IMG/VR virus record: IMGVR_UViG_3300045988_057894
Span: 1-54,712 of that record
Reading direction: 5' to 3' (one strand)
DNA length: 54,712 nucleotides
Source of the DNA: a virus
Shown: positions 1-54,712 of the stretch, piece by piece
How positions within the stretch are numbered: position 1 is the stretch's first letter
Layout of the letters: every line of letters starts with the position of its first letter
The notes under the pieces: model-generated
The model's database searches: none
What the model saw: the letters and a program-made list of their open reading frames with translations, nothing else
Told to the model about the DNA's origin: nothing
Position numbers and translations under genes: made by a program

Positions 1-119
1 AACAGTGCGTCAGATGCGAAAGGCATCGCATTGGTGGGGTCGTTCGTCCAATAGGCGGCAATCGCAGCCGGGGCAAAGACTTCCTTAAGATTCAGTGCCA
101 TGTTGTTTTACCTCTTATT
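1..119. repeat. Terminal direct repeat identical to 54594-54712 (overlap of a circular assembly)
   Basis: Both copies read aacagtgcgtcagatgcgaaagg...gttttacctcttatt. Bases 1-101 duplicate the 5' end of the capsid gene on the minus strand. Confidence 0.9.
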
Positions 120-13295: not shown

Positions 13296-13529
13296 TAGCA
13301 GTTGATGGCTTAGATGCCGTTACTCCATGCAGGTTAGATGTTGTTGCTGTTAGAGGTCACCCGGTCGGCGCGGTGCGCCGGACGATAGACGGTGACGTAG
13401 CGTGGAGGTTAGCTGAACGGTCTGCTTATATTCAGCCAATAAGAGCCTGACGACAGATGCTAGTTACGGTCTGCTCTGCTGGCTAACGGTGTAGCTTTGG
13501 AGATAGAGGGTTGTAGGGGGAAAGAACCT

Positions 13530-21182: not shown

Positions 21183-21184
21183 TA

Positions 21185-27844: not shown

Positions 27845-27969
27845 TTGATTTTTACGCATAAGTGTAATATAATGAAGTTGCTAGAAATCATTCATTACGC
27901 CTTCGCGGTACGGTCTTAGTATAATACGCTTCCGCGTAAAATGCAAGGCTTTTTTAAGCGTTCGCGTAA
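27845..27969. promoter_or_regulatory. Immunity switch: divergent promoters with four 16-bp operator-like sites (TTACGC-N4-GCGTAA)
   Basis: Plus strand TTGATT-17-TATAAT (27845-27873). Minus strand TTGCAT-17-TATACT (27946-27918). Sites at 27852-67, 27895-910, 27924-39 and 27954-69. Two of them lie inside promoter spacers. Confidence 0.6.
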
Positions 27970-28003
27970 TTTCAGCAAACCTTACAATGCGAGGACTGGA
28001 ATT

Positions 28004-28333
28004 ATGGCAAACTTGTACGAAAATATTGAAAAACTCTGCAAGCAGCGCGGAGTAAATGTGACTATAATGTGCAAGGAATCGGGTGCAAGCCGTGGGTCTT
28101 TGACCGATTTGAAAAACGGTAGAAAGCAAAGCTTGAAATATGAAACGCTCGATAAGATAGCTTCTTATTTTGGAACAAGCGTAGATGCTTTGGTTTCTGG
28201 CAACCAAAAAGAAAACCCGCACCAGCAGCCGCAAAGTGAAGTCGATGCAGCAGTGGAGCGGATTAGAAAAAAGCTTGAATCTATGCCGACAGCGCAGCGT
28301 GAAGCGCTGATGAACCTAATCGAGAAGATGTGA
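28004..28333 (+). CDS. CI-like XRE-family repressor
   Basis: GAGGA RBS. LCKQRGVNVTIMCKESGASRGSLTDLKNGRKQSLKYETLDKIASYFG HTH. Divergent from the cro-like gene. Confidence 0.72.
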   Translation: MANLYENIEKLCKQRGVNVTIMCKESGASRGSLTDLKNGRKQSLKYETLDKIASYFGTSVDALVSGNQKENPHQQPQSEVDAAVERIRKKLESMPTAQREALMNLIEKM

Positions 28334-29034: not shown

Positions 29035-29250
29035 AGACTAGCCCTCCCACGGCTTTGGCGTTCTGCTTTCGGTCGGTTCAGATGCGGGCATCCCGTCAAT
29101 GATAATCATGTTGTTACCTCCTGCTTGATTATTTTTTCGATGTTACAGTTATAACACAGGCTGCTGTTGGTTCTCCATAGCAGCTTTTTCCATTTTTTGG
29201 CTTGTCGAATCCAGCAGTTTTGCCGGATTTTGTTGAAAGGGTGGGAATTT

Positions 29251-29844
29251 ATGGATGAATATTTGGTAAGAACGGCCAAAGCATTAGAGATGGCACGGAT
29301 ACGTTCCGGCTTAAGCCAGCAGAAATTAGCCGCACGAATGGGCGTGAATCGTGGCACGATTTCCAACTGGGAGCAAGGTCTGGCAGCCATCTCCCTGCCA
29401 ATGGCTATGCGCTGGTTCACCTGCTGCGGCGTATCGGTGGCTCGATACATGGACGCTTGCATTCATCCGGGGCTGCTGGAGCATCTGGAGGACGACCTTT
29501 CCAGCATGGGAAAGCGTAAGATTCTCATAGATGCCATGATGGAGTGTTCCTCCTATGAGATAGATGCCTTGTTGTACATTCGGTACGGAGATCACGGCTC
29601 AGACCACATCGGCGTGTTGACGGAGATTCTGGCAAACCTCCACACGCCGTTGAAGGACAGGGTCGCTGTCTGCCGGATGGTATCGGGAAACTATGAGATA
29701 ACACAGGCTACCGGAACAGACCCAGACCCGAACGGAACCGCCCCGAAGATGGGAATACTCTATCAGGCGCAAGATGCTGGAACTGAAGCCGCTATGAAGT
29801 CCAACGATTCTTATACCGTGAACCCAAATAATATAACTGGCTGA
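29251..29844 (+). CDS. XRE-family HTH regulator with a ~130-aa C-terminal domain
   Basis: ARIRSGLSQQKLAARMGVNRGTISNWEQG HTH. Lies directly upstream of the plasmid-type origin. Confidence 0.65.
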   Translation: MDEYLVRTAKALEMARIRSGLSQQKLAARMGVNRGTISNWEQGLAAISLPMAMRWFTCCGVSVARYMDACIHPGLLEHLEDDLSSMGKRKILIDAMMECSSYEIDALLYIRYGDHGSDHIGVLTEILANLHTPLKDRVAVCRMVSGNYEITQATGTDPDPNGTAPKMGILYQAQDAGTEAAMKSNDSYTVNPNNITG

Positions 29845-30130
29845 TTGTCGAATTATCGTAGTTTTTTAAGAACATTTTGTCCACGTTCATCCACTTTTTG
29901 TACACCTATCGGACAAATTTACCTTGTCATTCCGTCCCCCATAGGCTGCAAATCGACAGTATTCGCGCTGAATAAATAACGAATTATCGTTAATCTGATG
30001 TTTGTGTTTGAATAGTTCGTCAATCCGTCCCCCATAACACCGGCTCAAAAGTTTTTCATCCACATTTTGTACACGTTAGATAAGACTAATCATTGTCGGA
30101 AAGACTTTATTCAGCAAATGGAAGGTTGAG

Positions 30131-30139
30131 TTATCCACA
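30131..30139 (+). promoter_or_regulatory. Consensus DnaA box
   Basis: Exact TTATCCACA, about 100 bp upstream of the iterons and next to an AT-rich tract (30215-30245). Confidence 0.6.
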
Positions 30140-30245
30140 AGCTGGAATGGAAAAAACAAAGAAATTGTTGAAAATTATCGTCATCGCCTATTTAACGATG
30201 ATATTTAACCTCTTGTTTATTTCTTGTTTAATATATAATATGTAG

Positions 30246-30343
30246 ATGGGGGACGAAATGACAAAGCATGGGGGACGTTTTGACAAGTCATGGGGGACGT
30301 TTTGACGACCATATGGGGGACAAAAAGACAAGTCATGGGGGAC
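30246..30343 (+). repeat. Five direct iterons (core ATGGGGGAC) at 22/22/23/22-bp spacing
   Basis: Cores at 30246, 30268, 30290, 30313 and 30335. Inverted copies GTCCCCCAT at 29934-42 and 30027-35. A partial inverted copy (acgtcccc) lies inside the rep promoter spacer. Confidence 0.85.
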
Positions 30344-30351
30344 AAAAATGG

Positions 30352-30380
30352 TTGACACGTCCCCAAAAATGTGGTATAAT
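30352..30380 (+). promoter_or_regulatory. Promoter of the rep-par operon, overlapped by a partial iteron
   Basis: TTGACA, 17-nt spacer, TATAAT. The spacer contains cgtcccc, suggesting autoregulation by Rep. Confidence 0.65.
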
Positions 30381-30407
30381 CATACCAGAAAAAAGGAGGC
30401 GTGAATC

Positions 30408-30767
30408 ATGAAAAAATATTTTCTGCTTGGTGAGGACATCGACCGCACCGAAATCACCGCAGAGGAAGCTACGCAACGTCAATTCGATGGTGATTATCGG
30501 GTTGTTGTTGAAGATGACGAACCCGCCGTCAAGGTTGACTCTGTTGCGATCAGTGCGACAGCGGAGCCGGATTGGGAGCCGTTCGCGTTCCCGGAAAAGC
30601 CCGGCTATCGCCTGACTGGGCACATCATCACCCGGTACGACAACGAGGGACTGTCTGACCGTATGGATTCCGTCCCTGCTGATGCCATCAAGACGGAGGA
30701 GCAAAACCGGTGGAGTTGGAAAGTTGGGCTTTTGCCACTACTCCATCATTGCCAGCCCTGTGTATGA
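30408..30767 (+). CDS. Acidic hypothetical protein (119 aa), first gene of the rep operon
   Basis: AAGGAGG RBS. The 3' end overlaps a second open frame (30682-30867) that runs up to the rep RBS. Confidence 0.5.
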   Translation: MKKYFLLGEDIDRTEITAEEATQRQFDGDYRVVVEDDEPAVKVDSVAISATAEPDWEPFAFPEKPGYRLTGHIITRYDNEGLSDRMDSVPADAIKTEEQNRWSWKVGLLPLLHHCQPCV

Positions 30768-30877
30768 CATTATTGCTACCGCAGCCTGCGGTGGTTGCGA
30801 AGGGTGCAAGCGCATGACCTGCTCCCGCCGTCAGAACGGCGTGAAGTGCCGTAATTATAGGGTATAAGGAGGAGCGG

Positions 30878-31957
30878 ATGCCAAAAATATCAGACAATAA
30901 CCTTGTCGAGAAAAGCAAATCCCTTGTTTGGGCGAAATTTAGGGACTACACCGCAGGAGAACTTCGGTTGTTGGAGGTTTACCTATCAAGAATAAATCCG
31001 AGAGACCCAAACAGCAGCCGTGTGGAGTTCTCGTTGGCAGAGTACAGAGACCTGCTGGGGTTAAAAAGCCTTGATGCACGAAGGATTGAGCCGCAGATCA
31101 AGCACTTTCTAGGCAATACAGTGTCGATTCCCATTGACAAAGAGAAGGGCACGTTTGAGAGTTTTGTCCTTTTCACAAGGGCAAAACTGGATTATGTGCC
31201 GGAAACAAGGTCTTATGTTGTGGCAATCACTTGCAACCCTGATCTTCGCCCCATCTTTTTTGATATTGCCGAAAGCGGGTACGTTCGGTATCGTCTGCGC
31301 TACACATCACGGATGAAATCACAGTACAGCATCCTGCTTTATTCTATTCTTCGGGACTGGTTGAATATGGACAACAAACCGCATGAAATCAGTCTGAAAA
31401 GGCTAAGAGAACAGCTCGGTGCGATGGAAGCAAGCTACGATGTTTACAAGAACCTTCGTAAACGAGTGCTTGATGTTGCAGTGGATGAAATCAATGCTGT
31501 GTCTGACATCGTGGTGACCTATGAACCGGTTCTTGTGGCACGAAAGGCCGTGGCAGTCAAGTTTAAGCCCAAAATTAAAGCGTCTGAGACACTGATTGAA
31601 GCTCAGGCAAGCGAAATATCGACCGAACCTCAAAAATCCACCAGAAAGCCCCGTAGAAGCGGATACGAGGATTTTGACTGGTCTGTGTGTGACGAGCTGG
31701 AAAAGCAAGACTGCATTGACGTGGCAAAAGTGGTTGAGAAGTGGATGAAGAAAGAGCATCCAGAAATCAAGCTGCCGAGACGCAGAGAAGCGGTTTACGA
31801 GACGGTAAAGGCAGCGTATAAGGATATTTTGTCTTTGGACAGGTCTCCGTTCCCCGACAGACCTGTTGGTTATCTGATTAGAAGCGTGGACAAGGCAGGT
31901 ATCGTAGACAAGTATATGCCAGCGTTTTATTCCATTGAAGCGCTTAACAGCAAATAA
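30878..31957 (+). CDS. Plasmid replication initiator, Rep_3 (RepB/RepE-like) family
   Basis: TAAGGAGG RBS. N-terminus NNLVEKSKSLVWAKFRDYTAGELRLLEVYLSRI, then YSILLYSILRDW, ISLKRLREQLG, YKNLRKRVLDVAVDEINAVSDIVVTYEPV. This pattern fits iteron-binding initiators, and iterons lie directly upstream. Confidence 0.8.
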   Translation: MPKISDNNLVEKSKSLVWAKFRDYTAGELRLLEVYLSRINPRDPNSSRVEFSLAEYRDLLGLKSLDARRIEPQIKHFLGNTVSIPIDKEKGTFESFVLFTRAKLDYVPETRSYVVAITCNPDLRPIFFDIAESGYVRYRLRYTSRMKSQYSILLYSILRDWLNMDNKPHEISLKRLREQLGAMEASYDVYKNLRKRVLDVAVDEINAVSDIVVTYEPVLVARKAVAVKFKPKIKASETLIEAQASEISTEPQKSTRKPRRSGYEDFDWSVCDELEKQDCIDVAKVVEKWMKKEHPEIKLPRRREAVYETVKAAYKDILSLDRSPFPDRPVGYLIRSVDKAGIVDKYMPAFYSIEALNSK

Positions 31958-31972
31958 AGAAAGAGTGATAAA

Positions 31973-32746
31973 ATGGCAAAAATCATAGCTATCGCCAACC
32001 AGAAGGGCGGCGCAGGCAAAACCACCACAAGCACCTGTCTGGCTGGCGCGTTGCAGTTGCTTGGCAAGAAAGTCTTACTGGTAGACTGCGATGCCCAGTG
32101 CAACGCAACGGACACTTACGGCGCACAGACAGAGGACGTATGTACTTTGTTCGATGTAATGACCCGTCAGGGCACGGTAGAGGAAGGAATCCAGCACTGC
32201 GAAGCTGGTGACATTCTGCCGTCAGACAATGCATTGAAGGACATTGACGAGCAGCTTGTCCGGGACATGGGCAAGAACTTCCGGCTGCGTGAAGCACTGG
32301 AATCCGTGTCTGAACAGTACGATTACATTGTTTTGGACACTCCCCCGCAGCTCGGTCTTGCGCTTGTAAACGCTCTGATTGCCGCCAACAGCATCATCGT
32401 GCCCATTACGGCAGACCGATATGCACTGGCTGGTCTGAGCCAGCTTTCGCAGACCATTGGCGACGTTCGCAGATACTTCAACCCGACCTTGAAGATTGAA
32501 GGTCTGCTTCTGAACCAGTACAAGAGCCGTGAGAACCTGTCTAAAGAGGTCGTGGAACAGCTCCCTGTGATTGCACAGAGCATGGGCACAACCCTGCTGG
32601 ACGTGAAAATCAGACCGTCTATGGGCGTTCGCAAGTCACAGGCAGAACGACACAGCCTGTTTAGTGGTGACACGGCAAAGAGCACCAGTGCAGAGGACTT
32701 CAAGGCGTTGGCGCAGATGATTGTGAAAGGAGAAGAAAATGAGTAA
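31973..32746 (+). CDS. parA: ParA/Soj-type partition ATPase
   Basis: Deviant Walker A IAIANQKGGAGKTTTS and VLLVDCDAQCNAT. 257 aa with no N-terminal HTH (type Ib-like). Confidence 0.9.
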   Translation: MAKIIAIANQKGGAGKTTTSTCLAGALQLLGKKVLLVDCDAQCNATDTYGAQTEDVCTLFDVMTRQGTVEEGIQHCEAGDILPSDNALKDIDEQLVRDMGKNFRLREALESVSEQYDYIVLDTPPQLGLALVNALIAANSIIVPITADRYALAGLSQLSQTIGDVRRYFNPTLKIEGLLLNQYKSRENLSKEVVEQLPVIAQSMGTTLLDVKIRPSMGVRKSQAERHSLFSGDTAKSTSAEDFKALAQMIVKGEENE

Positions 32747-33065
32747 GAAGATTGTAGACGTTGCTCCCTTGATGGAATATTATAAAAACAGACTTCTTGA
32801 AGAAGGTGACAATCAAGCGTTGGAAGATGCGTTAGAAAGGTTAAGAGCGTTAAGAAATGCTGATGTGCAAGATTTACAGACAAAAGCAACATGGGAACGT
32901 CCAGAGGGTTTGACTTTTATTATTCAGGACGATTATGATAACAGCCATGCAGAGCAAGCAATTAAATGCAGTAATTGTGGTGGTATGATTTCCGAAAGCG
33001 ATTTCGACAAGTGGATTTGGAATTTTTGCCCAGTATGCGGCGCAAAAATGGAGGAAGAAAAATGA
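32739..33065 (+). CDS. Zinc-ribbon protein inserted between parA and the parG-like gene (paralogue of 21808-22122)
   Basis: Overlaps the parA stop. C-terminus CSNCG...NFCPVCGAKMEEEK. Confidence 0.55.
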   Translation: MSKKIVDVAPLMEYYKNRLLEEGDNQALEDALERLRALRNADVQDLQTKATWERPEGLTFIIQDDYDNSHAEQAIKCSNCGGMISESDFDKWIWNFCPVCGAKMEEEK

Positions 33066-33634
33066 AATCAACCAGCAAAAAATCCTCTGGCTTGCTTGGA
33101 GGCTTTGATTTCCAGCCTGTTTTTTCGGAACCAGTATTAAGCCAAAGTGAGCCAAAGGAAGAAGAAGTAAGCCAAACAAAGCCGAATAATGCCGAACAAG
33201 CACTAATTAAGCCTAGTGATGCCATAGACAGCCATGCACAGCCAAGTGAAGCGGAATTAAGCAGTATTAAGCCGAAGCAAGCCAAAGACAGCAAAAGCCA
33301 GCCAAGTGATGCCGTGTTAGGCGAAGGTAAGCCGAAGAAGCTGAAACAGGCAAAGGAAACGAAACGGCTGATTGAACAGGGCAATATTCCCGGCGCACTG
33401 GCTGAAGCTGGTTTGACAAAGAAAAAAATCCCGATGCCGGAATCGCATCAGGGCGTTGCAAGCGGTGATGGCAAGCGTTCAAAGCGCATTACCATCCTTA
33501 TGAGCGAGGAGGAGCGCAAGTACATCAACCGTGAAGCCAGACGGCACGGAATGACCATCGGACAGTTCGTGTACGCTCTGGCTGCTGCTGCGGCAGATGG
33601 GAAGATTGAATTGGAGGATTTCTTAGATGAATGA
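33062..33634 (+). CDS. ParG/omega-like ribbon-helix-helix protein with a long repetitive N-terminal region
   Basis: ATGA coupling. C-terminus KRITILMSEEERKYINREARRHGMTIGQFVYALAA fits RHH. N-terminal 130 aa is low-complexity (SQ.KP / SEPK repeats). Confidence 0.6.
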   Translation: MKSTSKKSSGLLGGFDFQPVFSEPVLSQSEPKEEEVSQTKPNNAEQALIKPSDAIDSHAQPSEAELSSIKPKQAKDSKSQPSDAVLGEGKPKKLKQAKETKRLIEQGNIPGALAEAGLTKKKIPMPESHQGVASGDGKRSKRITILMSEEERKYINREARRHGMTIGQFVYALAAAAADGKIELEDFLDE

Positions 33635-34517
33635 TAGTGAACGACGCCTTATTCGATTTGTTTGCGATGGTGATATGCGAAACGCGCAAAAAGCCGTTAA
33701 AATCATTTTGGGTTCTATATCATCCAAAAAAGATGAGCGGTTCAAAGAAAATATGCTTCGCAAGTTGGAAAGCAAAAGAGAATTTATTGAATTGCCATAT
33801 AACTTACAGCATCTTTTGATCGCAGAGGATACAGAAGAATTTCCGGAAGCAAGATTCCTTCTTAGGAACGAAGAAAAAAGTATAACGCAGAAAACTGTTG
33901 CCATTTATCGAGCATCTGAAAAATTAAATGAAATGGGCATTCCTTATTTGCCAGCATTGATGCTTTATGGGCAAAGCGGATGCGGAAAAACCATGCTGGC
34001 TAGGTATATCGCTCATAAAGCAAAACTTCCGTTTTTGAGGATTCAATTTTCAAGTCTAGTTGATTCGCACTTGGGGCAAACACAGTCTAACCTTGCAAGA
34101 ATCTTTGATTATGTAAGAACTGCGCCTTGTGTACTTTGCTTTGATGAAATAGACGCGGTAGGTATGGCTCGTGGTCAAAAAGATGACGTTGGAGAAATGA
34201 ACCATGTGGTTATTGCGATTATGCAGGAAATGGATAGATTGCCGAACAATGTCATTATTATTGGAACGACAAACCGATTTGATAGGCTTGACCCTGCACT
34301 TGCAAGAAGATTTCCGTTGCAATACGAATTAAAGCCGTTGTGCCGTGCGGATGCAGAAATACTTTCCAAAAGGTTCTTTGAATATGCAGGAGCACAATAT
34401 GAAAACATAGCTTATGAAGATCACATCCCCGCATCTACTGTTATCAAAGAATGTACAGAACGAATTGTAAATCAAGTTCTGAATCAAGAGGATTTTTTTG
34501 GAGGATTGACAATATGA
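33627..34517 (+). CDS. Classical-clade AAA+ ATPase
   Basis: Walker A GQSGCGKT, Walker B VLCFDEID, sensor-1 GTTNR and LDPALARRF. GGAGGA RBS overlapping the parG-like stop. Confidence 0.85.
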   Translation: MNDSERRLIRFVCDGDMRNAQKAVKIILGSISSKKDERFKENMLRKLESKREFIELPYNLQHLLIAEDTEEFPEARFLLRNEEKSITQKTVAIYRASEKLNEMGIPYLPALMLYGQSGCGKTMLARYIAHKAKLPFLRIQFSSLVDSHLGQTQSNLARIFDYVRTAPCVLCFDEIDAVGMARGQKDDVGEMNHVVIAIMQEMDRLPNNVIIIGTTNRFDRLDPALARRFPLQYELKPLCRADAEILSKRFFEYAGAQYENIAYEDHIPASTVIKECTERIVNQVLNQEDFFGGLTI

Positions 34518-35065: not shown

Positions 35066-35497
35066 ATGGGCGTAACCATCAAATGCAAAAAGACTGGGCG
35101 TGAAATGGATGTGGGATATTTCGGTTTTTTCAAGTTGAGAACGAAAGTTGCAGAACTTGTTGGTTCGGAAGTCGGAGAACACTATAAAAAACTTGATGAC
35201 ATTTTCGATATGCCATCTCCCGAAAAAGAACATGCTCTTGAATCGTACGATAACGAAACAGAACGATTGATTGAAAGCAAAATGCTTCCGATTAAAATTG
35301 CAGACTTCCTTTACCAGTCTGATTGCGATGGAAAAATCCGATATGGTGCTTGCAAGGAAATCTTAAAAGCCATAGGCGATTATGACGATAGCATTATTTA
35401 CGGATATGCAGGTAGAGAAAATCCCGCAAGGTTCAGAGACTTCAAAGAAATCCTTCAAGATTGTGTAGACAATAAGTGCTTTATGATTTGGAGATAA
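35066..35497 (+). CDS. Hypothetical protein (143 aa)
   Basis: GGAGGA RBS. Followed by a strong terminator. Confidence 0.55.
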   Translation: MGVTIKCKKTGREMDVGYFGFFKLRTKVAELVGSEVGEHYKKLDDIFDMPSPEKEHALESYDNETERLIESKMLPIKIADFLYQSDCDGKIRYGACKEILKAIGDYDDSIIYGYAGRENPARFRDFKEILQDCVDNKCFMIWR

Positions 35498-35502
35498 CAA
35501 GA

Positions 35503-35545
35503 AACCCCTGTGTAGCCGTTAAAAACTACACAGGGGTTCTTTTTT
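35503..35545. terminator. Bidirectional terminator between convergent operons
   Basis: 13-bp stem AACCCCTGTGTAG / CTACACAGGGGTT flanked by A- and T-runs. Confidence 0.75.
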
Positions 35546-36182
35546 ACTTATCAGCAATGCAATCCCAGTAGAGATACGCCTTACCGTCAACAGCGTCCGT
35601 GTCATCAAGGAACGCCTTTGCCATGTCAGCGTAGAAGCCCGGAGTGTCAACAGACTGGCGTTTTGCGACCTGACAATAATCCGAGTACATCATGTTCATC
35701 ACAGCCCAGAAATCGTTCGGGTCACAGGTGATGTTGCGCTGTTTGGCAACGTCCTGTGTCTGTTCCAACGTCCAGTGACAACCCTTCGTGCCGTCAGCAT
35801 TCACCATGCTGTCGCACCATTCCTCCGCTTCATCGTGGGTGAGGTGCTGGCGTGGCATCCTGATCGAGCGGCTGTCTGCGCCGCCACGCTCATACTGCCC
35901 AGAGTGCTTGTCCCAGTCACCGTTCTGCGAGAAGCCGATTTGCGGCATTCTGCGCCCATATTCTACGTCAGGATAACGGGGGATAGGGTAGGGGTCGATG
36001 TAGCGGTTCTCCTCTTGCGGATAGTATGGATAGCGGTCGCTGCCATCTTCCAGCTTGCGCAGACGGCGTTCCAGCTCACGCTCCCTGCGATCGCGCTCTT
36101 CCTCAAGGCGGTCACGTTCCGGCTCACGGTCTTTGTCGTGGTCGCGGAGCATCATCATGCGGCGAAAATTAGTCTTGCCCAT
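35544..36182 (-). CDS. Hypothetical protein: R/E/D-rich, Pro/Tyr-rich N-half with a globular C-half
   Basis: GAGGAGG RBS. DREPERDRLEEERDRRERELERRLRK, then YPYYPQEENRYIDPYPIPRYP. C-half has HWTLEQT...MNMMYSDY. Confidence 0.55.
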   Translation of the reverse strand: MGKTNFRRMMMLRDHDKDREPERDRLEEERDRRERELERRLRKLEDGSDRYPYYPQEENRYIDPYPIPRYPDVEYGRRMPQIGFSQNGDWDKHSGQYERGGADSRSIRMPRQHLTHDEAEEWCDSMVNADGTKGCHWTLEQTQDVAKQRNITCDPNDFWAVMNMMYSDYCQVAKRQSVDTPGFYADMAKAFLDDTDAVDGKAYLYWDCIADK

Positions 36183-40526: not shown

Positions 40527-40899
40527 GATTTGTTACTCCTTTCAGCAGGTAGTTGTTGATATCGGATTTACTTTTTTGCATACCTTCGCGGTTGTTGCCG
40601 GAAAGTTGTGCATCCAGAAGATTCTGCACCCCAACAAGGACGAGACGCATTTCTTCATCAATGCCGTCAAAGCGGCGCAGGTCTCTTGCAAGGGCCTGTG
40701 TGTGTTGAAGCTGCCCCTGTTCCAGCACACCAAGTCTTTTGTCGAACGCATCCATTCGCTTGTTCTGCGCGTTGTCCGGCTCCTGCGCCTTTTTGATGTA
40801 CTTGTGGATAATTTCCAACACCTTGTCGATGGTGATGGCCGCAGCGCACAGGCTGCCCAGGATGCCCAGCACCCACAGCAAAGCTTCTTTTTCGGTCAT
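40510..40899 (-). CDS. N-terminally TM-anchored coiled-coil protein (lysis accessory / holin-like)
   Basis: GGGAGGG RBS. LLWVLGILGSLCAAAITI TM. Located between the endolysin and the holin. Confidence 0.45.
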   Translation of the reverse strand: MTEKEALLWVLGILGSLCAAAITIDKVLEIIHKYIKKAQEPDNAQNKRMDAFDKRLGVLEQGQLQHTQALARDLRRFDGIDEEMRLVLVGVQNLLDAQLSGNNREGMQKSKSDINNYLLKGVTNHGSNL

Positions 40900-41573
40900 T
40901 TGCCCTCCCGGAGACGGTCAAGCCCCTTTTTCGCAATAATTTTGGCGTAGTCCTTATAGGGCACAGACAAGTCCACGCCGGAAACCTTGCCCGGTATTGC
41001 ATCCATAACGCCGGGAATCTTGCCATTGCTGGTGTACTGCCACATACCAAACGGCCAGCCCGGTTCGGGCTTCTTGCCGCGGTATGCCGCCAGCCAGACG
41101 TCGTATGGCTTGAGCGCCGCGCCGGTCATGTACAAGTTATCGCGGCCAAAGCACAGCCCGGTGTACAGCATGGCGTAAAAGCCCCAACTTTCCACTGTGC
41201 CCAGCGCATGGGCTGCAATGTCCGTCAGGGTCTGCTTGTCCAGCGGGGCCTGCACATAGCTGTCCTCGACGTCAACCGCCACGGGCAGCTGCACCGTCTT
41301 GCCGGTCAGCACCTTTCGCAGCAGGGCAAGCTCTGCGTCCGCTTCTGCCGTGTTGACCGCCTTGCAGTAGTAGTACACGCCGCAGGGGATGCCCAGCCGC
41401 TTGCACTCGGCATAGTTGCGCTCAAAAGTGGGGTCAATGTACGGCTTGCTGGGCTTGTCTTTGGCGCTGTTGCCCAGCGCCCGCAGCATCGCGCCGGAAA
41501 CAAGGCCGCTTGCCTTTACCTTGTCCCAATTGATAGTACCCTGCCACTTGGATACGTCCATAATAGACTTCAT
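40896..41573 (-). CDS. Endolysin, GH25 muramidase family
   Basis: MDVSKWQGTINWDKVKASG start and the later VAVDVED motif are typical of GH25 lysozymes. Confidence 0.82.
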   Translation of the reverse strand: MKSIMDVSKWQGTINWDKVKASGLVSGAMLRALGNSAKDKPSKPYIDPTFERNYAECKRLGIPCGVYYYCKAVNTAEADAELALLRKVLTGKTVQLPVAVDVEDSYVQAPLDKQTLTDIAAHALGTVESWGFYAMLYTGLCFGRDNLYMTGAALKPYDVWLAAYRGKKPEPGWPFGMWQYTSNGKIPGVMDAIPGKVSGVDLSVPYKDYAKIIAKKGLDRLREGK

Positions 41574-41578
41574 TTAAA

Positions 41579-41749
41579 TTACCTCCTTTCCAGCACTTCG
41601 CCAGTAATGTTCTGATACTCTTCAGGCGTGATTTCGCCGCTCTCCACACGTTCGGCCAAAATCTTTTTGACATTTGCACGGCGGCTTGCAGGCATTTCGT
41701 CCCAAGTCTTCGTACCGGCAACCAAACGTTTTGCCCAGATTTTATCCAT
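41579..41749 (-). CDS. XkdX-like small tail-module protein (56 aa)
   Basis: GGAGG 6 nt before the ATG at 41749. Reads MDKIWAKRLVAGTKTWDEMPASRRANVKKILAERVESGEITPEEYQNITG. Below the ORF-track cut-off. Confidence 0.5.
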   Translation of the reverse strand: MDKIWAKRLVAGTKTWDEMPASRRANVKKILAERVESGEITPEEYQNITGEVLERR

Positions 41750-41760
41750 GTTAAACCTCC

Positions 41761-42126
41761 TTACTCTCCGTTGACTGCTTCATCCAGCTCGCAGATTGCA
41801 TCCTCAATGGCGCTCATGCGCTCATCATTAGCCGCATCCTGCTCACACATAGCATCCTGCAGCTCTGCAGCAGCTTTTGCCGACCGCTCTGCCAAAGGGC
41901 CGGTCTTGTCGGTCATTCGGTAGTGGCGGTCGATCTCGTACCAGTCGTAGCAGCGCCCCCCCGCGTCCTCCGCGCTGCGTAGCTTGCGGATGACCCGGAA
42001 GCTGTCGGTGATGGTCTGGTCGGGATACTCCCGCTCGAGCTGGTGATAGCCGGTCAGGTCGGTGTGGGCGTCGCCGACGGTCTTGAGGACTTCAGCGCCG
42101 CCCTTTGTGCCAAAAACATAATCCAT
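41761..42126 (-). CDS. Hypothetical tail-module protein (121 aa)
   Basis: AAAGGAG RBS. Sits between the fibre and XkdX-like genes. Confidence 0.5.
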   Translation of the reverse strand: MDYVFGTKGGAEVLKTVGDAHTDLTGYHQLEREYPDQTITDSFRVIRKLRSAEDAGGRCYDWYEIDRHYRMTDKTGPLAERSAKAAAELQDAMCEQDAANDERMSAIEDAICELDEAVNGE

Positions 42127-42234
42127 GTCAGATTCTCCTTTCTCCGCTGATTGCGATACCGTGCAAGCGCCCCTTGCGGGGTGTACTAGCCCGCTCCAAA
42201 AATGCCTATCTTCACCGTGGGGTGTGCGGCCCCC

Positions 42235-44199
42235 TCAGACTCCCCCGTTGGGGAGTTCTTGGAGACGACAGCCGATGTTCGAGTACGTGCTCGAATCCGA
42301 GTATTGGCTGACGCAGAACAGGCCAAAGTTGGGGCCACGGCCATAGCCAGCGCCAACGTCGAGGCACGGGCTCGAAGAGTCGAAGCCCCAGTAATCGCAC
42401 GAATAGGTCTTGGTGTTGCCGCTTGAAGCCGTAGGGATAAAGAGCGGATACCCGCCGGTCGTCTTGACCGTAAAAGTGGACGGATAACCGTTCGACGGAG
42501 TGCCGACTGCCGTGCCGCCGCTGCTGTCGCTGAAGTTTGCGGGGTTGAGGATAATGTTGAGGCCGTTGCTGTTGTAGTAGCAGCCATCGCACCAGTCCAG
42601 CACGTTATCCCACAGGCCCTCGATGTTGCGGTACTGCGTCCCGCAGCCGTAAGTGGTGCGGCTGCTCTGGGTCGTGCCGGTGTGGTAGGGCATCGAGTCG
42701 GTGTAGCCCATCGACTGCTTGGAGCTGCCGTTGCCGCAGCCGTAGCCGATGACTTCCTGACTGTTCCAGTCGCAAAATTCGACGATGTACAGCAGCCAGA
42801 TGGTAAACCGCATCGCAAAATCGCTCTGCCAGATGGTGAAGCCGAGCTTGTGGATGTTGGAGCGGGCCGTGCTGCGGGTAATGTCCATCTTGGGGAGGCC
42901 GAGGTCGCCGGCGCTGCTCTTGTATCCGCTGTTGCAGTGGTAGCGGCCAACGTACACCACATCCCGCTCGCCGTGTCCGTCCCCTCTGTCCATGTGGGCA
43001 GGGCTGACGCTGTAGCCCTCCACCGCGCGGTCGGCGATCTGGATGGTCATGCCCCTGCCGTTCTGGGTAAGCTTATACCAAAATTTCGGGATGGCAACCA
43101 TCGTGCCGCCGGTGCGCTCGCTTTTTACCATGCCCGCCCAAGGCTGCAAATTGTCAAAGGGACTGCCGTAGCTGCTTGCCCCCGCCACGTAAGGCACCGG
43201 GTCGGTAAACTCTGCCGCCTCGTCGGTGCGGCTCCACTTGGTGGTGCTGGTGCCGTCCCAGCTTGCGCCGTAGATGTGGGCGTAGGCCAGCTCAAGGGGG
43301 TAGTCCTTGTACTCGGTGACTTCCACGGTGGCGGTGGTGGTCTCCTCGCCCAGCGTGGCCGTTACCGTCCACGTGCCAGCGATGGACAGATAGAGCTTGA
43401 TGCTGCCGCTCTCCGGCACCGTGCCGGAGACGGTCTTGTCCCCGCACTGGGCGGTGACGGTGCTTCCCGCCTTGACTGTCACGGTCAGGGTGTAGTAGGT
43501 CAGGGTCAGGGTCTTAGTGCGGCAATACTCCGCCTGCACCGTCTCCGTGGCCACGCCGGTGCCGAGCGTGGCAGTGACGGTCCACTCTCCGTCGTGGGGC
43601 AGGGCCGCAGAGAAGTTGCCGTCCGCAGCCACGCCGCTCACGTCTTTCTCGCCGTCCGAGAGGATGATGGAGCTGCCTGCCTCGGCCTGCACCACCACCC
43701 GGGGCCGTACGATGCCTCCCACCGCCGCCGCGTCCGCCGCCGCGCCGGAGATGGTGAGGGTCTTGTCGGTCTCGATTTTGATAGCGTTGATGCGGTCGCC
43801 CACGGCTTTTGCATCTGCAGGCGCATCAGCTATGGTCAATGTTTTGTCAGTGCTTGCGCGGATTCCTGCTAAAGCTGCTGCTGCTTCGGCTTTTTCTTGC
43901 GCGATTTCGGCGCCAGACTGGCTCTTACTAGCCGCTGTGGCAGAATTGAAAGCGTCCTGCTGACTCTTAGCGGCATTAGAAGCACTGGCGGCAGCAGCAT
44001 TTGCTTGACGAATTGCTTCTTCCTTCGCAACATCTGCTCCTGCAACATCTGAAAGCGTATTCAGCGTCTCCGCGTTCATGGGAGTGCCTTCGACAATCGG
44101 TTCATCGTTGCGAATCAGCGTAACAACTTCAGACGAGCCGTTTGCCTTCGTCATCGTCCACCGGTTAGGGTACTTTGCTTCACGATCAACAAAGTGCAT
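42235..44199 (-). CDS. Tail fibre / receptor-binding protein
   Basis: GGAGGTG RBS. N-terminus HFVDREAKYPNRW, Ala-rich coiled segment, Ig-like repeats. C-terminal domain has YRNIEGLWDNVLDWCDG, typical of phage fibre tips. High GC. Confidence 0.72.
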   Translation of the reverse strand: MHFVDREAKYPNRWTMTKANGSSEVVTLIRNDEPIVEGTPMNAETLNTLSDVAGADVAKEEAIRQANAAAASASNAAKSQQDAFNSATAASKSQSGAEIAQEKAEAAAALAGIRASTDKTLTIADAPADAKAVGDRINAIKIETDKTLTISGAAADAAAVGGIVRPRVVVQAEAGSSIILSDGEKDVSGVAADGNFSAALPHDGEWTVTATLGTGVATETVQAEYCRTKTLTLTYYTLTVTVKAGSTVTAQCGDKTVSGTVPESGSIKLYLSIAGTWTVTATLGEETTTATVEVTEYKDYPLELAYAHIYGASWDGTSTTKWSRTDEAAEFTDPVPYVAGASSYGSPFDNLQPWAGMVKSERTGGTMVAIPKFWYKLTQNGRGMTIQIADRAVEGYSVSPAHMDRGDGHGERDVVYVGRYHCNSGYKSSAGDLGLPKMDITRSTARSNIHKLGFTIWQSDFAMRFTIWLLYIVEFCDWNSQEVIGYGCGNGSSKQSMGYTDSMPYHTGTTQSSRTTYGCGTQYRNIEGLWDNVLDWCDGCYYNSNGLNIILNPANFSDSSGGTAVGTPSNGYPSTFTVKTTGGYPLFIPTASSGNTKTYSCDYWGFDSSSPCLDVGAGYGRGPNFGLFCVSQYSDSSTYSNIGCRLQELPNGGV

Positions 44200-44650
44200 A
44201 GTAAGGTTCACCTCCACATACCGGTTCTGAGCAGTAAAGCAAATGATTGTTGGCTATCGTTTCGATATCCAACAAAATTTGTTCCACTTGATTGATAATT
44301 ATAAAATGCAGATAACTTAAAGAGTCGGGAGTTGCTGGGGTATCGTTTTTGCCGCTGCATAAAGCACGAACGGATTTAATGTTGGAAATCCAGCGAGAAG
44401 CGTCCGAAACGGTAAGATACCCATTTACATCCCAGTTTGTTTTAGTGGAAACAGAAACATTCAAAATGTTTGCGATTTCTTGGATTCCGCTTTCAATACG
44501 GTTATAGTCCATATAACTCAAAGCACCATTCATGCCAGCCGCCCATTCTGCCTGTTCTTCTTCCGTCCATGTTCCGTTTTTTGCCTTCGATACGATTGAT
44601 TTGACCCGTTCAACATCGGAAGCAGTCCTGTCTGTAATCCATTGAGTCAA
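44186..44650 (-). CDS. Tail-fibre-associated protein
   Basis: WITDRTASDVERV...GMNGALSYMDYNRIE motif, as seen upstream of fibres in Firmicutes phages. Confidence 0.55.
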   Translation of the reverse strand: MTQWITDRTASDVERVKSIVSKAKNGTWTEEEQAEWAAGMNGALSYMDYNRIESGIQEIANILNVSVSTKTNWDVNGYLTVSDASRWISNIKSVRALCSGKNDTPATPDSLSYLHFIIINQVEQILLDIETIANNHLLYCSEPVCGGEPYYALC

Positions 44651-46254
44651 CGAGTATCAACTCCTTCCAACAAATACCCTTCAACAGTTCCGTGGAAACA
44701 ACCAGAATACTGATAAGAAAAACTAGTTGTCAAAAGGGTTGAAGAGTATCCGAATTGATGGTGAACCAACACGTAATCCAATGCATCGAAATGCGGACTT
44801 GCGCGATATTTCAACGAAACCTTTCGACGATTGGAGAGCAGCTTGTACGCTTCTGTCAAGATGTTTTTGTCTTGGCTGAGAATGCTTTCGGAGAGCATTT
44901 TGTTGTTCACGGTTTGCGTAGCGCCGCTTCCGGTCGGAGATTCCGGATAAGAGTAGGCCTTATTTGTGGTGCTTGTTCCATCAGAAGATTTCACTTCAAT
45001 GGAGCAAGTCACGTTTTTTAAGGGCGAAGAGAATGTGATTTCAGGCCAGTTGAAATTGTTGATGATATCAATTTCACCGGCAAGGTTTGCTTTTGCCGAA
45101 GAAATATCCGGAATGCGATCAATGATGATTGTTCCGTCCCGGGTCTGGTACATTGTCATTCCTGCGGCGTTTGCGACCATTTGCAGAATGTCGGCATCTT
45201 TATAGCTGTTTTTATCTTGCTTTGTAATGTCTGTACTATAATTTTTAAGTTCACTGGAAATTCGGAAATTTTCCGAACCACCATCCAAAAGCTCAAGGGC
45301 ATCGTAAGCCATCTCGTAGAGCGTGCCATACATTCTACCGGTGTAATTGGATGTCATTAAAGAACCGAATGCATCTCGTGCTGTAAAACTCGCTTCGATG
45401 CTGTTGGACGGAACGCTCCACTCAGAAAGATAAAACTTTCCGCCGTTAATCCATTCAATCGTTCCGTCCAAATCCATACCGTATTCCACAGAGATGGGCT
45501 GACGCTCGTACAGGTATTTGTAAAGACCTTCCGGGTTGATCGGGTTCCATTTCTGCGTGCTGTTATCCACAGTAAAGGTGACACTATCATTTGGCAGCTG
45601 ACCGCTGATGGGGTCTCGAACGGAATCGTGCTTGTACGAAAAAATATCGTTCTTATTGAAAACGATAAATTGGCCAAGCTTTATTTGCTCCAGCCGTGCG
45701 CGGCGATTGTCTAAACACCATGATAAGATTTGAATGGAAATAGAATCATAGCCTGCGATTTCCCAACTGATATCCGAAACAGCGGATTTATTATCCGTAA
45801 CCGTTTTTGTGGATACGATTGTGCCCCCGGAATAAGTTGTCAACTTAAAACTCGTAGGCCACTCCTCAAAAGTTGCCGACCAGGTAATGGTAATACCAGG
45901 AATCGTTGTAGTGTGAATTTTGCTGAACGACAACGTAATGACCGGGTGGTTGTAACTTGAAACGCAATTTTCGCTGATATAACCAGCTTCTTGCGGGTCA
46001 ACGTTATAATCAGGGAGGGCAAAGCTCCCATCCAAAACACTGAAGTTTAGTTCACCAGTAGAATATTTTGTGTAGTTTTGCTTTTCGGTTTCAACGATAG
46101 AAGAAGCGTTGCTGAAAAACGTTTCTCCATTCGTGCTAGGCATTGCATCTTCTTGCAAGCCGGGTTCTGTAACACCGTATGTGATTTTAACAAACATCTC
46201 CGGAACAAGCGTTTCGGAGAATTTATCAAGCCATTTCTGAGAAGGTTGTACCAT
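44647..46254 (-). CDS. Tail-tip / baseplate hub-like protein (535 aa)
   Basis: GGAGG RBS. Second gene after the tape measure. Call rests on position. Confidence 0.6.
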   Translation of the reverse strand: MVQPSQKWLDKFSETLVPEMFVKITYGVTEPGLQEDAMPSTNGETFFSNASSIVETEKQNYTKYSTGELNFSVLDGSFALPDYNVDPQEAGYISENCVSSYNHPVITLSFSKIHTTTIPGITITWSATFEEWPTSFKLTTYSGGTIVSTKTVTDNKSAVSDISWEIAGYDSISIQILSWCLDNRRARLEQIKLGQFIVFNKNDIFSYKHDSVRDPISGQLPNDSVTFTVDNSTQKWNPINPEGLYKYLYERQPISVEYGMDLDGTIEWINGGKFYLSEWSVPSNSIEASFTARDAFGSLMTSNYTGRMYGTLYEMAYDALELLDGGSENFRISSELKNYSTDITKQDKNSYKDADILQMVANAAGMTMYQTRDGTIIIDRIPDISSAKANLAGEIDIINNFNWPEITFSSPLKNVTCSIEVKSSDGTSTTNKAYSYPESPTGSGATQTVNNKMLSESILSQDKNILTEAYKLLSNRRKVSLKYRASPHFDALDYVLVHHQFGYSSTLLTTSFSYQYSGCFHGTVEGYLLEGVDTR

Positions 46255-46257
46255 ATA

Positions 46258-46635
46258 TTAGACCTCCACAAGAGAAAGCGTGCATCCAGTCCAGCCCATA
46301 ACATTGCCATTGGTCGGGCATCTGCGCCACATTCCGGACGTTCGGTCGGACACGTACATCTGCCGGGTGTCGTATCCGGCCTTAGCTTGATTATAAAATC
46401 GAACGGTACAATAAAAGTTTGTGGTAAAAAGATTTAAGACGGTCGCCCATTGTTTTGCGGTAAGGAAATTCCATTTCATGTTTACTTTCGCTACATCATG
46501 TCGAACAACGGAGCCGACCACTTTGCCTTGTACATTACGGCCGGAATCCACAATGGTACTGGTGGTAGCTTCATAGGAGGACGGTTCAGGAAACTCTACG
46601 CCGTTTACCGTTACCAGTGCTGGAATATTTGCCAT
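46258..46635 (-). CDS. Distal-tail-like protein (125 aa)
   Basis: AAGGAGG RBS. Immediately downstream of the tape measure. Call rests on position. Confidence 0.55.
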   Translation of the reverse strand: MANIPALVTVNGVEFPEPSSYEATTSTIVDSGRNVQGKVVGSVVRHDVAKVNMKWNFLTAKQWATVLNLFTTNFYCTVRFYNQAKAGYDTRQMYVSDRTSGMWRRCPTNGNVMGWTGCTLSLVEV

Positions 46636-46650
46636 AGAACCGCCACCTCC

Positions 46651-49600
46651 TTAGTAGCTATAAATTTCACTGCCCATTAAAGATTGCCCGCGAGAATTCT
46701 GCTGCTTTTCAACAGACGCAGTGATTTGCTTTCCGTCGATGTAAAGCTTGATTTCCTTGCCACCGTTGATTTCGTCGCCGTACCGCTGGAAAATATCAAG
46801 AAATGCGTTGTAGCAACCGTTATAAACCGAGCTTCTAAGCTCTTCTGCGCTGACGCCTGGATTGGTAGTATACGAACCGCTAGATACAGTTCCGGATCCG
46901 GTCGTTTTGTCGTAATCGCTCGTGCCTGGATACTTGGAAATATCGGTGATGACAGAAGAATCAGACTTGGACGAAGAGAACTTTCCGCCAAGCGCCCCGA
47001 CAATGCCAGTAATGGCAGCTGCGATCGCAACACCACCTGCAATCAGGAGAACGCCGGTGGGAATGCCAAGAGACGTCAGGACACTGCCGATGGTTTGGAG
47101 CAACCCCATGAATGCCGTGCCAACTTGCCCAATCAGGCCAGCTACGCCAGCAATAATACTGGGGAATTGGCTCAAAACGCCGCTAGACAAACCAACGCTA
47201 ATTGCATTGCCCGCAACTGCCATCGGGCCGGACATACTTGCAAAACTCGTCATGATTTTATTTCCAAGCCCAACGGCTTGACTTGCAATGTTTCCGAACT
47301 GTGAAGTGATGCCGGCAAGGATGTTTTGTCCAATTCCCTTTGCAGAAACAAGAGCTTTTGCGCCAACGTCCTTCAAGGCTTTAGTCAGCGTGGAAATCAG
47401 GTTGGAAGTGTAGGACTTCACTTGATTCCGGTTTTCTTCACCCATTGCCTGCCAGATGATAGCTGCGGTATTAGTAGCAACAGTCTGAATATCACCGCTT
47501 TTTACAGCTTCAACCATTCCTTTAATAGTCCCAACAAAATCGTTTTTAAGGCCACTGTCGATTTCGCTCCACTTAGAGTTCAGCGTGTTCACGATGTTAT
47601 CAACAAATCCGGTTGCAACGCTAGAGCCATAGTCAATCATCTCGTTGCCCTTCTGCTGAACAGCGTTTGCCAGATTGGTCATGGCTTGTTCAACGTAAGG
47701 AAGTGCTGCAGTGATACCGTTCGCAAGGCCTTGGTCAATAAATTCACCAAAGCGCTCAAACAGAGCGGAGGGAGAGTGAATTTCAGTGTCGTTCGTAAAC
47801 TTATCAATAATAGCTTTTGCAAGATTTGCCGCAGCGCCTTTTGCGGTTTCAATGCCGCTTTTGATACCATTTACGAGGCCCTGCCAAATGTTTTTGCCTG
47901 CTTCAAACATTTTGGAAGGAAGAGAAGCAATAGCATTTGCAACGGCTGTTACCATATCGGAAGCAGCTTTTGCGGCATCTTTTGCCCACGTTTTGATATC
48001 ATCGATAAATCCACGAACAGCTCTCGCACCGTTTTCGACGTGTTCATCGAGATGTACGAACCATGTAACAACATCCTTTACCCAATTGATAAGGTCAGCA
48101 AAACCAAGAACCGCCTTTTCGATGAAGTTACCGTTCATCTGAATATCAAGACGGTCGGTTTCACTCACTCCATTGGTAATCCATCCGACAAACACTCCGA
48201 TATCGTGAATCAGCTGAGCAATGCCCATGACGGCATTCTCGATGAAGTTACCGTTCATCTGTAAGTCAAGCCTGTCAGTTTCGGAAACACCGTTCTGAAT
48301 CCATCCAATAAAAATTGCGAAATCATTGATAAGGTTTCCAATGGCTGTAATTGCGTCACCTACAAAATCAGCAACTTTTTCGCCCATAGACTTGAAAGCA
48401 TTGAACCAGTCCGTTTCCATCTCAAAAGCTTCTTTTTGACTTTCGCTACCAAGACCACGAACTGCAACAGTGATAGCTTCAAAACCAAGAACAGCAAGAC
48501 CGGCTACAGGATGACCGCTAACAATAAGACCGATGCCCATAAGTGTTGTAATTAAATCACCAACATCAAGATCAAGGTCTTTTACAGCGTCAGAGATTGT
48601 TTTGAACGCAGAAGAAATACCCTCCTGCCAACTTTCTGGAATGAGATTCCAGATTACTTGCTTTAAGTTAGAAAAAGATTCTTTCAGGTATTTGATGGAT
48701 TCTCCGAGTTTTCCATCTGTGAGTGATATATTCCAACCCTGCCTAAGCCCTTCCGCAGCAAGGTAAATCATAGCTTGAACACGTTCAAGGCCTTTTCGGA
48801 ACGCTTCACTGTTTTGGTATAGGTCAACAAAACGAGCAACCATGATGCCAACAGCGACAGCTGCTCCCATAATGGGAGACTTCCAAAGCTTGAGAATTCC
48901 TTCAATTAAAGAGCCATCGCCTTTGATTTTATTGAGAGCTTCAAGCAAAGCGTTGCCAATAGCCCACGTTGCAAATCCGGCAGAAATACCAGCAATCAAT
49001 GGCGCAAGCTTTTCCAGCTTTGCCTTGATTTCGTCCACGGCGTTGCCAACATAGTTCTTGAACATATCGTAGCCGGACAGGTCTACATCACCCAAGATGT
49101 TGCCAGCAGATGCGCCGCTACCAGAGCCGGAGCTTCCCTGTGTGGGGTCAATGATGTTCAGTTCATCAAAGCCCATCGTGTAGTCCTTGAGGGCTTTGGC
49201 AGCTTTCTTTGTCGAATCGGTTGTGTTATCCATTGCGTCACCGATGCCACCAACGCTGTCAGCGCTCTTAGTGAAATCAGTAAACACGACCTTCACACCC
49301 ATCAGTTTTGCCACCCATTCAACGAACTCTCGAATGAGCTGTACGGCGGCAATCAGCGGGGGAAGAATGGATTTCATGGCAGGGTAGAGCAGAGAGCCAA
49401 CAGACTTCGCCAGCATATCCAACTGCGCTTTCAGAATCTTAATCTGGTTCGCAGGACTCTGGATGGTCTGTGCAAGGTTGCCCTGCACGTTGGCAGTCTG
49501 CTTCATAATGGCAATGTAACGCAGAACCGCCTTATCTGCCTGAGACAGACTAGAAACCTGCTTGTTAAAGCCCAAAGCTAGAAGCTCCTGCTGCAACCGT

Positions 49601-51429: not shown

Positions 51430-51513
51430 AATAAATGCTCTCCTTTATAAATAGGGGCAGAACCAAATCCGATGTTCAGTTCTGCCCAGTTTGATTGATT
51501 CGATTTTTGCGGT

Positions 51514-51951: not shown

Positions 51952-51966
51952 AGAATGTTTACCTCC

Positions 51967-53594: not shown

Positions 53595-53614
53595 GCTGCT
53601 TTCCTCCTTTCGCC

Positions 53615-54694: not shown

Positions 54695-54712
54695 GTTGTT
54701 TTACCTCTTATT
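54594..54712. repeat. Second copy of the terminal overlap (identical to 1-119)
   Basis: Base-for-base identity, read by eye. Confidence 0.9.

Follow-up and report, generated by a model that had tools for sequence, protein, structure and literature searches.

The window analyzed here, a 54,712-nt stretch of DNA (positions 1 to 54,712 of IMG/VR virus record IMGVR_UViG_3300045988_057894; 49% G+C, 51% A+T), is the complete genome of a temperate siphovirus-type tailed phage of the human gut, with a host that is probably Clostridia-like. Our main conclusion is that this phage is very probably a phage-plasmid, whose prophage is most likely a low-copy circular plasmid and not integrated. A first-pass annotation of the same DNA had proposed as much from virion genes combined with an initiator/ParA/ribbon-helix-helix (RHH) maintenance cassette and from the lack of an integrase. 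Our analysis supports this proposal: a full set of phage genes stands beside Rep and Par genes and an integrase is absent, features from which the plasmid state itself is deduced. The first 119 nt are identical to the last 119 nt, and the contig therefore closes as a circle with a unit of about 54,593 bp. Genes were called with a codon-usage score. All plausible ones were searched for Pfam domains, in part after being joined into polyproteins, and selected genes were also compared to PHROGs profiles.

The replication gene of the cassette encodes a 359-aa protein which the first-pass annotation had taken for a Rep_3-like initiator. Profile searches with this gene product gave clear matches to both Rep_3 domains, each above its curated cut-off, namely, Rep3_N (7.9e-23, 81.8 bits, cut-off 22.4) and Rep3_C (7.8e-13, 48.9 bits, cut-off 21.1) (Pfam PF01051 and PF21205), as well as to the PHROG family "replication initiation protein." A profile built from 20 Rep sequences matched the solved structures of RepE (1REP, 1e-13) and of the R6K pi protein (2NRA, 2e-7) over both winged-helix domains. 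By tblastn, a similar gene was detected in 1,846 PLSDB plasmids; nearly all of the best-listed records call it a replication initiation protein or RepM. Identity to these plasmid Reps was 24 to 37% over the aligned stretch, the highest among the matches listed being 36.7%, for a Mediterraneibacter gnavus plasmid. Judging from its sequence, this gene product is a genuine initiator of the Rep_3 family.

Upstream of rep, every part of the iteron origin that had been claimed was found in place. The 54.7-kb window contains exactly seven copies of the 9-mer ATGGGGGAC, every one of them within the origin region. Five direct copies start at 30246, 30268, 30290, 30313, and 30335, with a spacing of 22, 22, 23, and 22 bp (Tandem Repeats Finder reported a 22-bp array of 4.6 copies at 30246 to 30347), and two inverted copies, at 29934 and 30027, extend beyond the 9-mer to full iterons of 20 to 22 nt. 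The tract at 30140 to 30245 is 73.6% A+T, compared to 51% for the whole window, and carries TCTTGTTTA twice (30211 to 30219 and 30222 to 30230), repeats also present in small Rep_3 plasmids. The tract is preceded by the exact DnaA box TTATCCACA. Since the window has five exact copies of this box, the match alone is not significant, but three other lineages have TTATCCACA, TTTTCCACA, or TTTTCCACT at the corresponding position. The promoter at 30352 to 30380 consists of TTGACA, a 17-nt spacer, and TATAAT (12/12 consensus positions) with an extended -10 TG, and it is the sole perfect promoter match within the 6.5 kb scanned. An inverted part-iteron, CGTCCCC, occupies the first 7 nt of its spacer (30358 to 30364). 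The first-pass annotation compared the iterons to those of R6K/pPS10-type origins; the resemblance of the origin to the Gram-positive pCI305/pWV02 type is at least equally close. Between promoter and rep lies a 119-aa open reading frame (ORF) with no family match, which is rare among type A relatives, that is, those sharing the iteron type of the window. The distance between the last iteron and rep was measurable in 77 of these relatives, and only 4 of the 77 have the ORF; in the others, rep begins about 75 nt past the last iteron.

The origin and the protein predicted to act on it vary together. Rep relatives down to about 49% identity were found on phage contigs of 47 to 62 kb with the same gene order, and those at about 46% identity were the Reps of very common 3- to 6-kb plasmids encoding Rep_3 and Mob_Pre. 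The layout is common to four lineages and the small plasmid: an AT-rich segment with two TCTTGTTTA repeats is followed by five 22-bp iterons, a promoter containing a part-iteron, and rep. The window and lineages L001 and L118, whose Reps are 89 to 95% identical, have the iteron GGGGGAC-N5-TGAC, and lineages L095, L105, and L104, with Reps of 67%, 57% (56% by global alignment), and 49% identity, have GTGTAC-N5-GTGGA; in the small plasmid (Rep identity of 46%) the iteron is TACGACCAGAAAAAACCGGG, beginning with TACGACCAG. The part-iteron in the promoter spacer switches with the array, being GTCCCC in one case and GTACAC in the other. The sequence of the repeat thus differs by Rep variant, while repeat number, spacing, and position are unchanged. 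Short of experiment, the concerted change of array, operator, and protein is the best argument to be had that the origin is functional.

The remainder of the backbone does not follow the divergence of Rep. ParA is 94 to 96% identical between lineages, as are the DUF7841 protein and a 290-aa protein encoded downstream, L118 being more diverged throughout (83 to 87%). In contrast, Rep is only 49 to 67% identical in lineages whose backbone is about 95% identical (L095, L103/L104, and L105, with 94 to 98% identity in ParA and the genes downstream). Within the Rep of L095 the C-terminal third is 85% identical and the winged-helix part 59%, and one recombination break-point falls within rep. The combination of a conserved backbone with divergent Reps and iterons therefore indicates that the iterons and the DNA-binding part of Rep have been exchanged as a module by recombination. 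Such exchange between otherwise similar genomes, together with the kinship to small plasmids, is also what might be expected if the assembly had wrongly fused a plasmid with a phage, or if a plasmid carried a dead prophage. We consider this exceedingly improbable, since the same gene order recurs across hundreds of assemblies made independently, by different projects and with different assemblers, the virion, lysis, and packaging genes are all intact, and the terminal overlap closes the circle.

A further conserved feature lies about 300 bp upstream of the array, where all lineages keep four distal inverted iterons, two of their own type and two of the alternative type. This holds whichever Rep is encoded (window, L095, L104, L105, and L118). 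Invariant alignment columns amount to 62 of 84 (74%) inside the four sites and to 35 of 149 (23%) between them (p = 6e-14). The foreign-type iterons could be decoys or handcuffing sites through which a resident phage-plasmid titrates, or pairs with, the Rep produced by a sibling with the opposite specificity, an explanation which we hold to be rather unlikely; they may instead be bound by another conserved protein or be relics kept by frequent recombination. If they did act as decoys, they would constitute a replicon-level system of exclusion or incompatibility among rival phage-plasmids and would drive the diversification of Rep specificity.

The genes for Rep, ParA, and the RHH-type protein do form a single plus-strand operon, as had been proposed, which also includes the 119-aa ORF and an ORF for a 108-aa zinc-ribbon protein. 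The gap between rep and parA is just 16 nt, consecutive genes overlap start to stop from parA through an AAA ATPase gene, and the operon extends to a terminator at about 35.5 kb; the start/stop overlaps of the zinc-ribbon ORF with its neighbors represent translational coupling. The 257-aa ParA matched ParA/AAA_31 (1.8e-54) with an alignment starting at residue 2, and the solved structures most similar to it are those of ParA/Soj proteins of 255 to 276 aa, in line with the claim of a ParA of type Ib size, that is, small and without an N-terminal helix-turn-helix (HTH). The AAA ATPase gene at 33627 to 34517 matched the defense ATPase IetA of PADLOC (1.4e-53) and, below its cut-off, NCBIfam IteA (8.5e-51); no IetS-like partner was seen.

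The 190-aa protein encoded after the zinc-ribbon ORF starts with a peptide that is rich in lysine and conserved, MKSTSKKSSGLLGGFDF, and continues through a linker of variable sequence into a C-terminal domain. A Pfam scan at E <= 0.01 returned a NikA-like RHH match only (2.3e-5; 24.9 bits, under the curated cut-off of 27) and neither the ParG nor the omega family. The pattern RITILMSEEERKYINREARRHGMTIGQFV fits a strand-helix-helix arrangement, and one homologue carries the name "NikA" in one source; the homologues at hand for alignment were all at least 87% identical. The C-terminal domain probably adopts an RHH fold. Of the earlier description as a ParG/omega-like RHH protein, the RHH part is thus probable, on a sub-threshold match, and the family membership does not stand; the resemblance to ParG and omega would be one of functional analogy only. 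As for the site at which such a protein might act, conserved CGAATTATCG pairs and the distal sites are candidate centromeres only. Two further ideas were dropped. The DNA at 33129 to 33314 shows a 10-nt AAGCC periodicity, but this coincides with the 10-aa repeats in the linker of the RHH-type protein and is absent from L118, which has a Q/N-rich linker of equal length in their place. Co-variation of the distal sites with the RHH-type protein was likewise not borne out, as this protein is divergent in L118 and the distal sites are unchanged.

We then considered how else the prophage could be maintained. Neither a tyrosine recombinase nor a large serine recombinase was found by Pfam, in all plausible genes, or by PHROGs, in a selection of genes, and tblastn with the integrase of Clostridium phage Maintenon against the six frames of the window returned nothing, so that the reported lack of an integrase is borne out. 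In Maintenon the integrase gene adjoins the repressor gene; in the window the repressor-side strand instead bears the origin, rep, and par. The only recombinase is, as had been noted, a 191-aa protein of the resolvase/invertase type, with a Resolvase domain (6e-34, residues 2 to 138), a short C-terminal HTH_17 (residues 167 to 190), and a match of 2.3e-50 to the PHROG family "DNA invertase." That the phage integrates by means of this enzyme, or of a host XerCD-type recombinase, and uses Rep and Par during a transient episomal phase seems to us very unlikely. The enzyme is kept in 315 related contigs and is also a weaker match, through the shared catalytic domain, to a PHROG "integrase" family, and five related contigs of 76 to 115 kb (two of which were checked and are not exact dimers) might be seen as products of integration. 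However, the architecture is that of a resolvase/invertase, with a catalytic domain and a short HTH and no large C-terminal recombinase domain; small serine recombinases of this type are not known to act as phage integrases. Moreover, a complete iteron replicon and a partition ATPase under purifying selection would be hard to explain in an integrating prophage.

The contigs of relatives provide additional evidence against integration. IMG/VR contained 285 contigs with Rep relatives and 315 with resolvase relatives, many of them shared, and most were 54 to 62 kb long; the longest contigs for the Rep clusters measured 57 to 64 kb, among clusters with thousands of sequences. No host-phage junction was seen in the contigs examined, and in about 100 loci no host gene was present within 10 kb of rep. 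Contig break-points were scattered around the circle. Downstream of rep, the ends of about 30 relatives fell at more than 20 positions spread over 35.4 to 41.8 kb in window coordinates, with no single att point, which rules out a fixed genome end (cos, att, or telomere) at this place. This accessory and partly GC-rich region looks like a hypervariable zone that breaks assemblies and not like a physical end.

Besides the plasmid-type origin, the genome carries what appears to be a separate system for lytic growth, on the strand opposite to that of rep, par, and the repressors. The early minus-strand operon encodes antirepressors, Erf, SSB, a PAPS-reductase-like protein, the DnaB helicase, and a DnaD-like initiator. 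Just 3' of the DnaD-like initiator gene, a gene-free stretch of 1.5 kb harbors 11 same-strand copies of RATAGTCGYA, all within 12628 to 13297, compared to 0.2 expected by chance; this stretch is a candidate lytic origin.

This second system bears on whether the phage is stably lysogenic at all. Rep_3 and ParA could instead serve lytic or carrier-state (pseudolysogenic) replication, as PHROGs includes phage families of Rep_3-like initiators and of ParA-like proteins and as no lysogen was observed. We consider this likewise very unlikely, because a phage-type replication module with its own repeat cluster is already present, because rep and par are co-oriented with CI-like repressor genes in a genome with three antirepressor-type genes, and because assemblies described as metagenomes of whole communities contain the Rep and RHH genes in great abundance. 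In established plasmid biology, moreover, iteron origins under autoregulation and active partition, both predicted here, are typical of low-copy inheritance.

The phage gene set is complete. Terminase, portal, capsid, major tail protein, tape measure, tail proteins, holin, and GH25 lysin were all identified, so that the claim of a full virion gene set holds for packaging, head, tail, and lysis genes, all intact. Among cultured phages, the nearest by terminase (52% identical) is the 57-kb Clostridium phage Maintenon, with which portal, capsid, and tape measure are also shared. Relatives among phage records were only unannotated human fecal contigs, and a PLSDB DNA search gave zero related plasmids. 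Two scans of GTDB genomes, with Rep alone and with a 20-sequence Rep alignment, returned only a 37% identical Rep in an Anaerotignum metagenome-assembled genome (MAG), and no host was therefore assigned. An Rfam scan detected a single tRNA and no RNA family by the origin.

Several results nevertheless weigh against a plasmid prophage. None of the isolate genomes, GTDB genomes, and PLSDB plasmids searched carries the element, and a circular assembly would be equally expected from circularly permuted virion DNA. No centromere was identified in the window region, the RHH match of the 190-aa protein is below threshold, and a PDB sequence search with this domain gave no significant solved match. 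No res site was identified for the recombinase and no invertible segment was seen. A perfect 32-bp palindrome at 6547 to 6578 (15-nt arms), in an AT-rich gap upstream of the HTH and resolvase genes, was dismissed as a res site since it is absent from 62 of 80 relatives sharing the recombinase (present in 18). Finally, five related IMG/VR contigs measure 75.8 to 115.4 kb instead of the usual 54 to 62 kb (3300045988_043058, 3300029742_000285, 3300045988_038389, 3300045988_097692, and 3300045988_050806, corresponding to loci L240, L245, L038, L056/L135, and L127/L287). For the 100-kb and 110-kb contigs, exact tandem dimerization was rejected, as contig-specific 44- to 49-mers occur once only. The idea that a type A genome is joined to a type B genome in the long contigs found no support, as the type B array word was found only in 12 contigs of 10 to 60 kb.

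Taken together, these data favor a phage-plasmid that would be maintained as follows. Rep monomers would bind the five 22-bp iterons and, with host DnaA at the DnaA box, would open the AT-rich TCTTGTTTA element and load a replicative helicase. Rep, probably as a dimer, would also bind the part-iteron between -35 and -10 and thereby repress its own operon, and the two own-type distal inverted iterons may pair with the array to limit copy number. ParA and the downstream RHH-type protein would segregate the copies, and the conserved small serine recombinase probably resolves plasmid multimers. Lytic growth would proceed through the separate opposite-strand system of DnaD-like initiator, DnaB, SSB, Erf, and the repeats at 12.6 to 13.3 kb. 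The most probable design is thus similar to that of P1.

Table 1. Coordinates of features in the 54,712-nt window
Feature	Position	Strand	Remarks
Terminal overlap	1..119	.	Equals 54594-54712
Portal, SPP1-type	1389-2945	-	Pfam/PHROGs
tRNA-Met, CAT anticodon	3353-3430	-	Rfam; between portal and large terminase genes
Large terminase	3853-5520	-	Pfam/PHROGs
Resolvase/invertase-type serine recombinase, 191 aa	5613..6188	-	Sole recombinase; conserved in 315 related contigs
RATAGTCGYA repeat cluster	12628..13297	+	11 copies; candidate lytic origin
DnaD-like initiator	13530-14249	-	
DnaB helicase	14408-15613	-	
CI-like HTH repressor	27941..28333	+	Divergent from early lytic operon
Second HTH_3 regulator	29167..29844	+	Directly upstream of origin
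Type B distal inverted iteron (GTGTACAAAAAGTGGA), copy 1	29886..29905	-	17/20 columns invariant, four lineages
Type A (own-type) distal inverted full iteron, copy 1	29923..29944	-	
Type A (own-type) distal inverted full iteron, copy 2	30016..30037	-	
Type B distal inverted iteron, copy 2	30055..30074	-	Also a DnaA box with 1 mismatch (TCATCCACA)
DnaA box TTATCCACA	30131..30139	+	Position conserved across lineages
AT-rich tract	30140..30245	.	Candidate unwinding element; 73.6% A+T, two TCTTGTTTA
Five direct 22-bp iterons (ATGGGGGAC-N5-TGAC...)	30246..30356	+	Fifth overlaps -35 box
rep-operon promoter	30352..30380	+	Spacer part-iteron (30358-30364) is a candidate Rep operator
119-aa ORF	30408..30767	+	Inserted between rep promoter and rep; in 4/77 type A relatives
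Rep_3 replication initiator, 359 aa	30878..31957	+	WH1, WH2, C-terminal extension of ~120 aa
ParA partition ATPase, 257 aa	31973..32746	+	Deviant Walker A KGGAGKT; no N-terminal HTH (type Ib architecture)
108-aa zinc-ribbon ORF	32739..33065	+	Start/stop codons overlap neighbors; slot content varies among relatives
Candidate centromere-binding protein, 190 aa	33062..33634	+	N-terminal peptide MKSTSKKSSGLLGGFDF, 10-aa-repeat linker, RHH-like C terminus
IetA-like AAA ATPase	33627..34517	+	Accessory cargo, same operon; in some relatives only
Strong bidirectional stem-loop terminator	35495..35546	.	Plus-strand operon meets converging minus-strand gene
Lysis and virion block	40896..54694	-	GH25 endolysin, tail proteins, tape measure, major tail protein, major capsid
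Tape measure, 1,348 aa	46651-50697	-	
Major capsid protein	53615-54694	-	

Two genes outside the maintenance region were also noted. A 402-aa cysteine-rich protein (8931 to 10139) ends in an HNH-like motif, IDRINNDGNYCPENC, and has no Pfam or NCBIfam match. The PAPS-reductase-domain protein (20319 to 21194) resembles DndC/BrxP, with a DUF551-like C-terminal part, and a similar gene is present in Clostridium phage Maintenon; it may have a role in DNA modification or anti-restriction.

Phage-plasmids are an established category, which already includes candidates from gut Firmicutes, and what sets this family apart is its unusually wide distribution and good preservation. Data from the human gut contain it very often, with hundreds of near-complete genomes in IMG/VR; as many as 1,488 and 1,381 sequences fall into just two of the Rep clusters, and the RHH-type protein spans 829 clusters at 90% identity. 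Its hosts are probably uncultured Clostridia, for which hardly any phage-plasmid biology has been described. The origin is small and clean and comes with natural specificity variants, which could make it a direct source of replicons for genetic tools in gut anaerobes as well as a model for the evolution of Rep-iteron specificity. Predictors of lifestyle that rely on integrases would misclassify such phages.

Phage-plasmids have reportedly been catalogued by Pfeifer et al. The well-known P1, N15, and SSU5 are likewise temperate; they have no integrase and combine a full virion gene set with genes for plasmid replication and partition. P1 shares with the window what appears to be the same division between plasmid and lytic replication, together with a site-specific recombinase that could resolve dimers. 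No sequence relationship to these groups was found (no PLSDB DNA matches), the replicon of the window is a Gram-positive-style Rep_3 iteron origin, unlike theirs, and their plasmid state has been demonstrated, whereas the window is known from sequence alone. Many Firmicutes-type phage-plasmid candidates have been reported from gut viromes (bioRxiv 10.1101/2025.02.07.636470).

With regard to the origin, the closest non-phage Reps are those of the small Rep_3 and Mob_Pre plasmids of gut Clostridia (one of them from a [Clostridium] leptum MAG), with 46% identity over 98% of the length. These plasmids have the same layout, including the TCTTGTTTA repeats and five 22-bp iterons, but a different iteron sequence, and they are mobilizable, 3 to 6 kb long, and without partition and phage genes. 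The theta origins of pCI305/pWV02 from lactococci and streptococci are described as an AT-rich region, tandem 22-bp iterons, inverted repeats over the rep promoter leader, and rep (PMC4293149). This layout matches the window by description, with three and a half iterons versus five, and the window adds the distal inverted iterons and a partition operon after rep. RepE (F), pi (R6K), and RepA (pPS10) also combine an iteron array, a DnaA box, an AT-rich element, and a part-iteron operator; here the similarity is distant, RepE lacks the C-terminal extension of about 120 aa found in the Rep of the window, and the host of the window is Gram-positive-like.

The partition genes are most readily compared to type Ib systems (ParF-ParG of TP228 and delta-omega of pSM19035), in which a small ParA without an N-terminal DNA-binding domain is likewise followed by a non-HTH protein, here probably of RHH type; inc18 plasmids also encode a small serine recombinase, as the window does. 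ParG and omega are about 70 to 76 aa long, compared to 190 aa for the RHH-type protein, and a variable ORF separates the latter gene from parA. Type Ib centromere repeats usually lie upstream of parA; in the window the par genes follow rep, and neither a centromere nor a promoter of their own was identified. A parallel for the lifestyle as a whole is offered by mycobacteriophages that carry parABS instead of an integrase and form extrachromosomal prophages (PMC7157519). They differ in host phylum, replication system (Rep_3 iterons in the window), and ParA type, but in both groups a maintenance cassette replaces the integration cassette among related phages, the integrase-bearing relative here being Maintenon.

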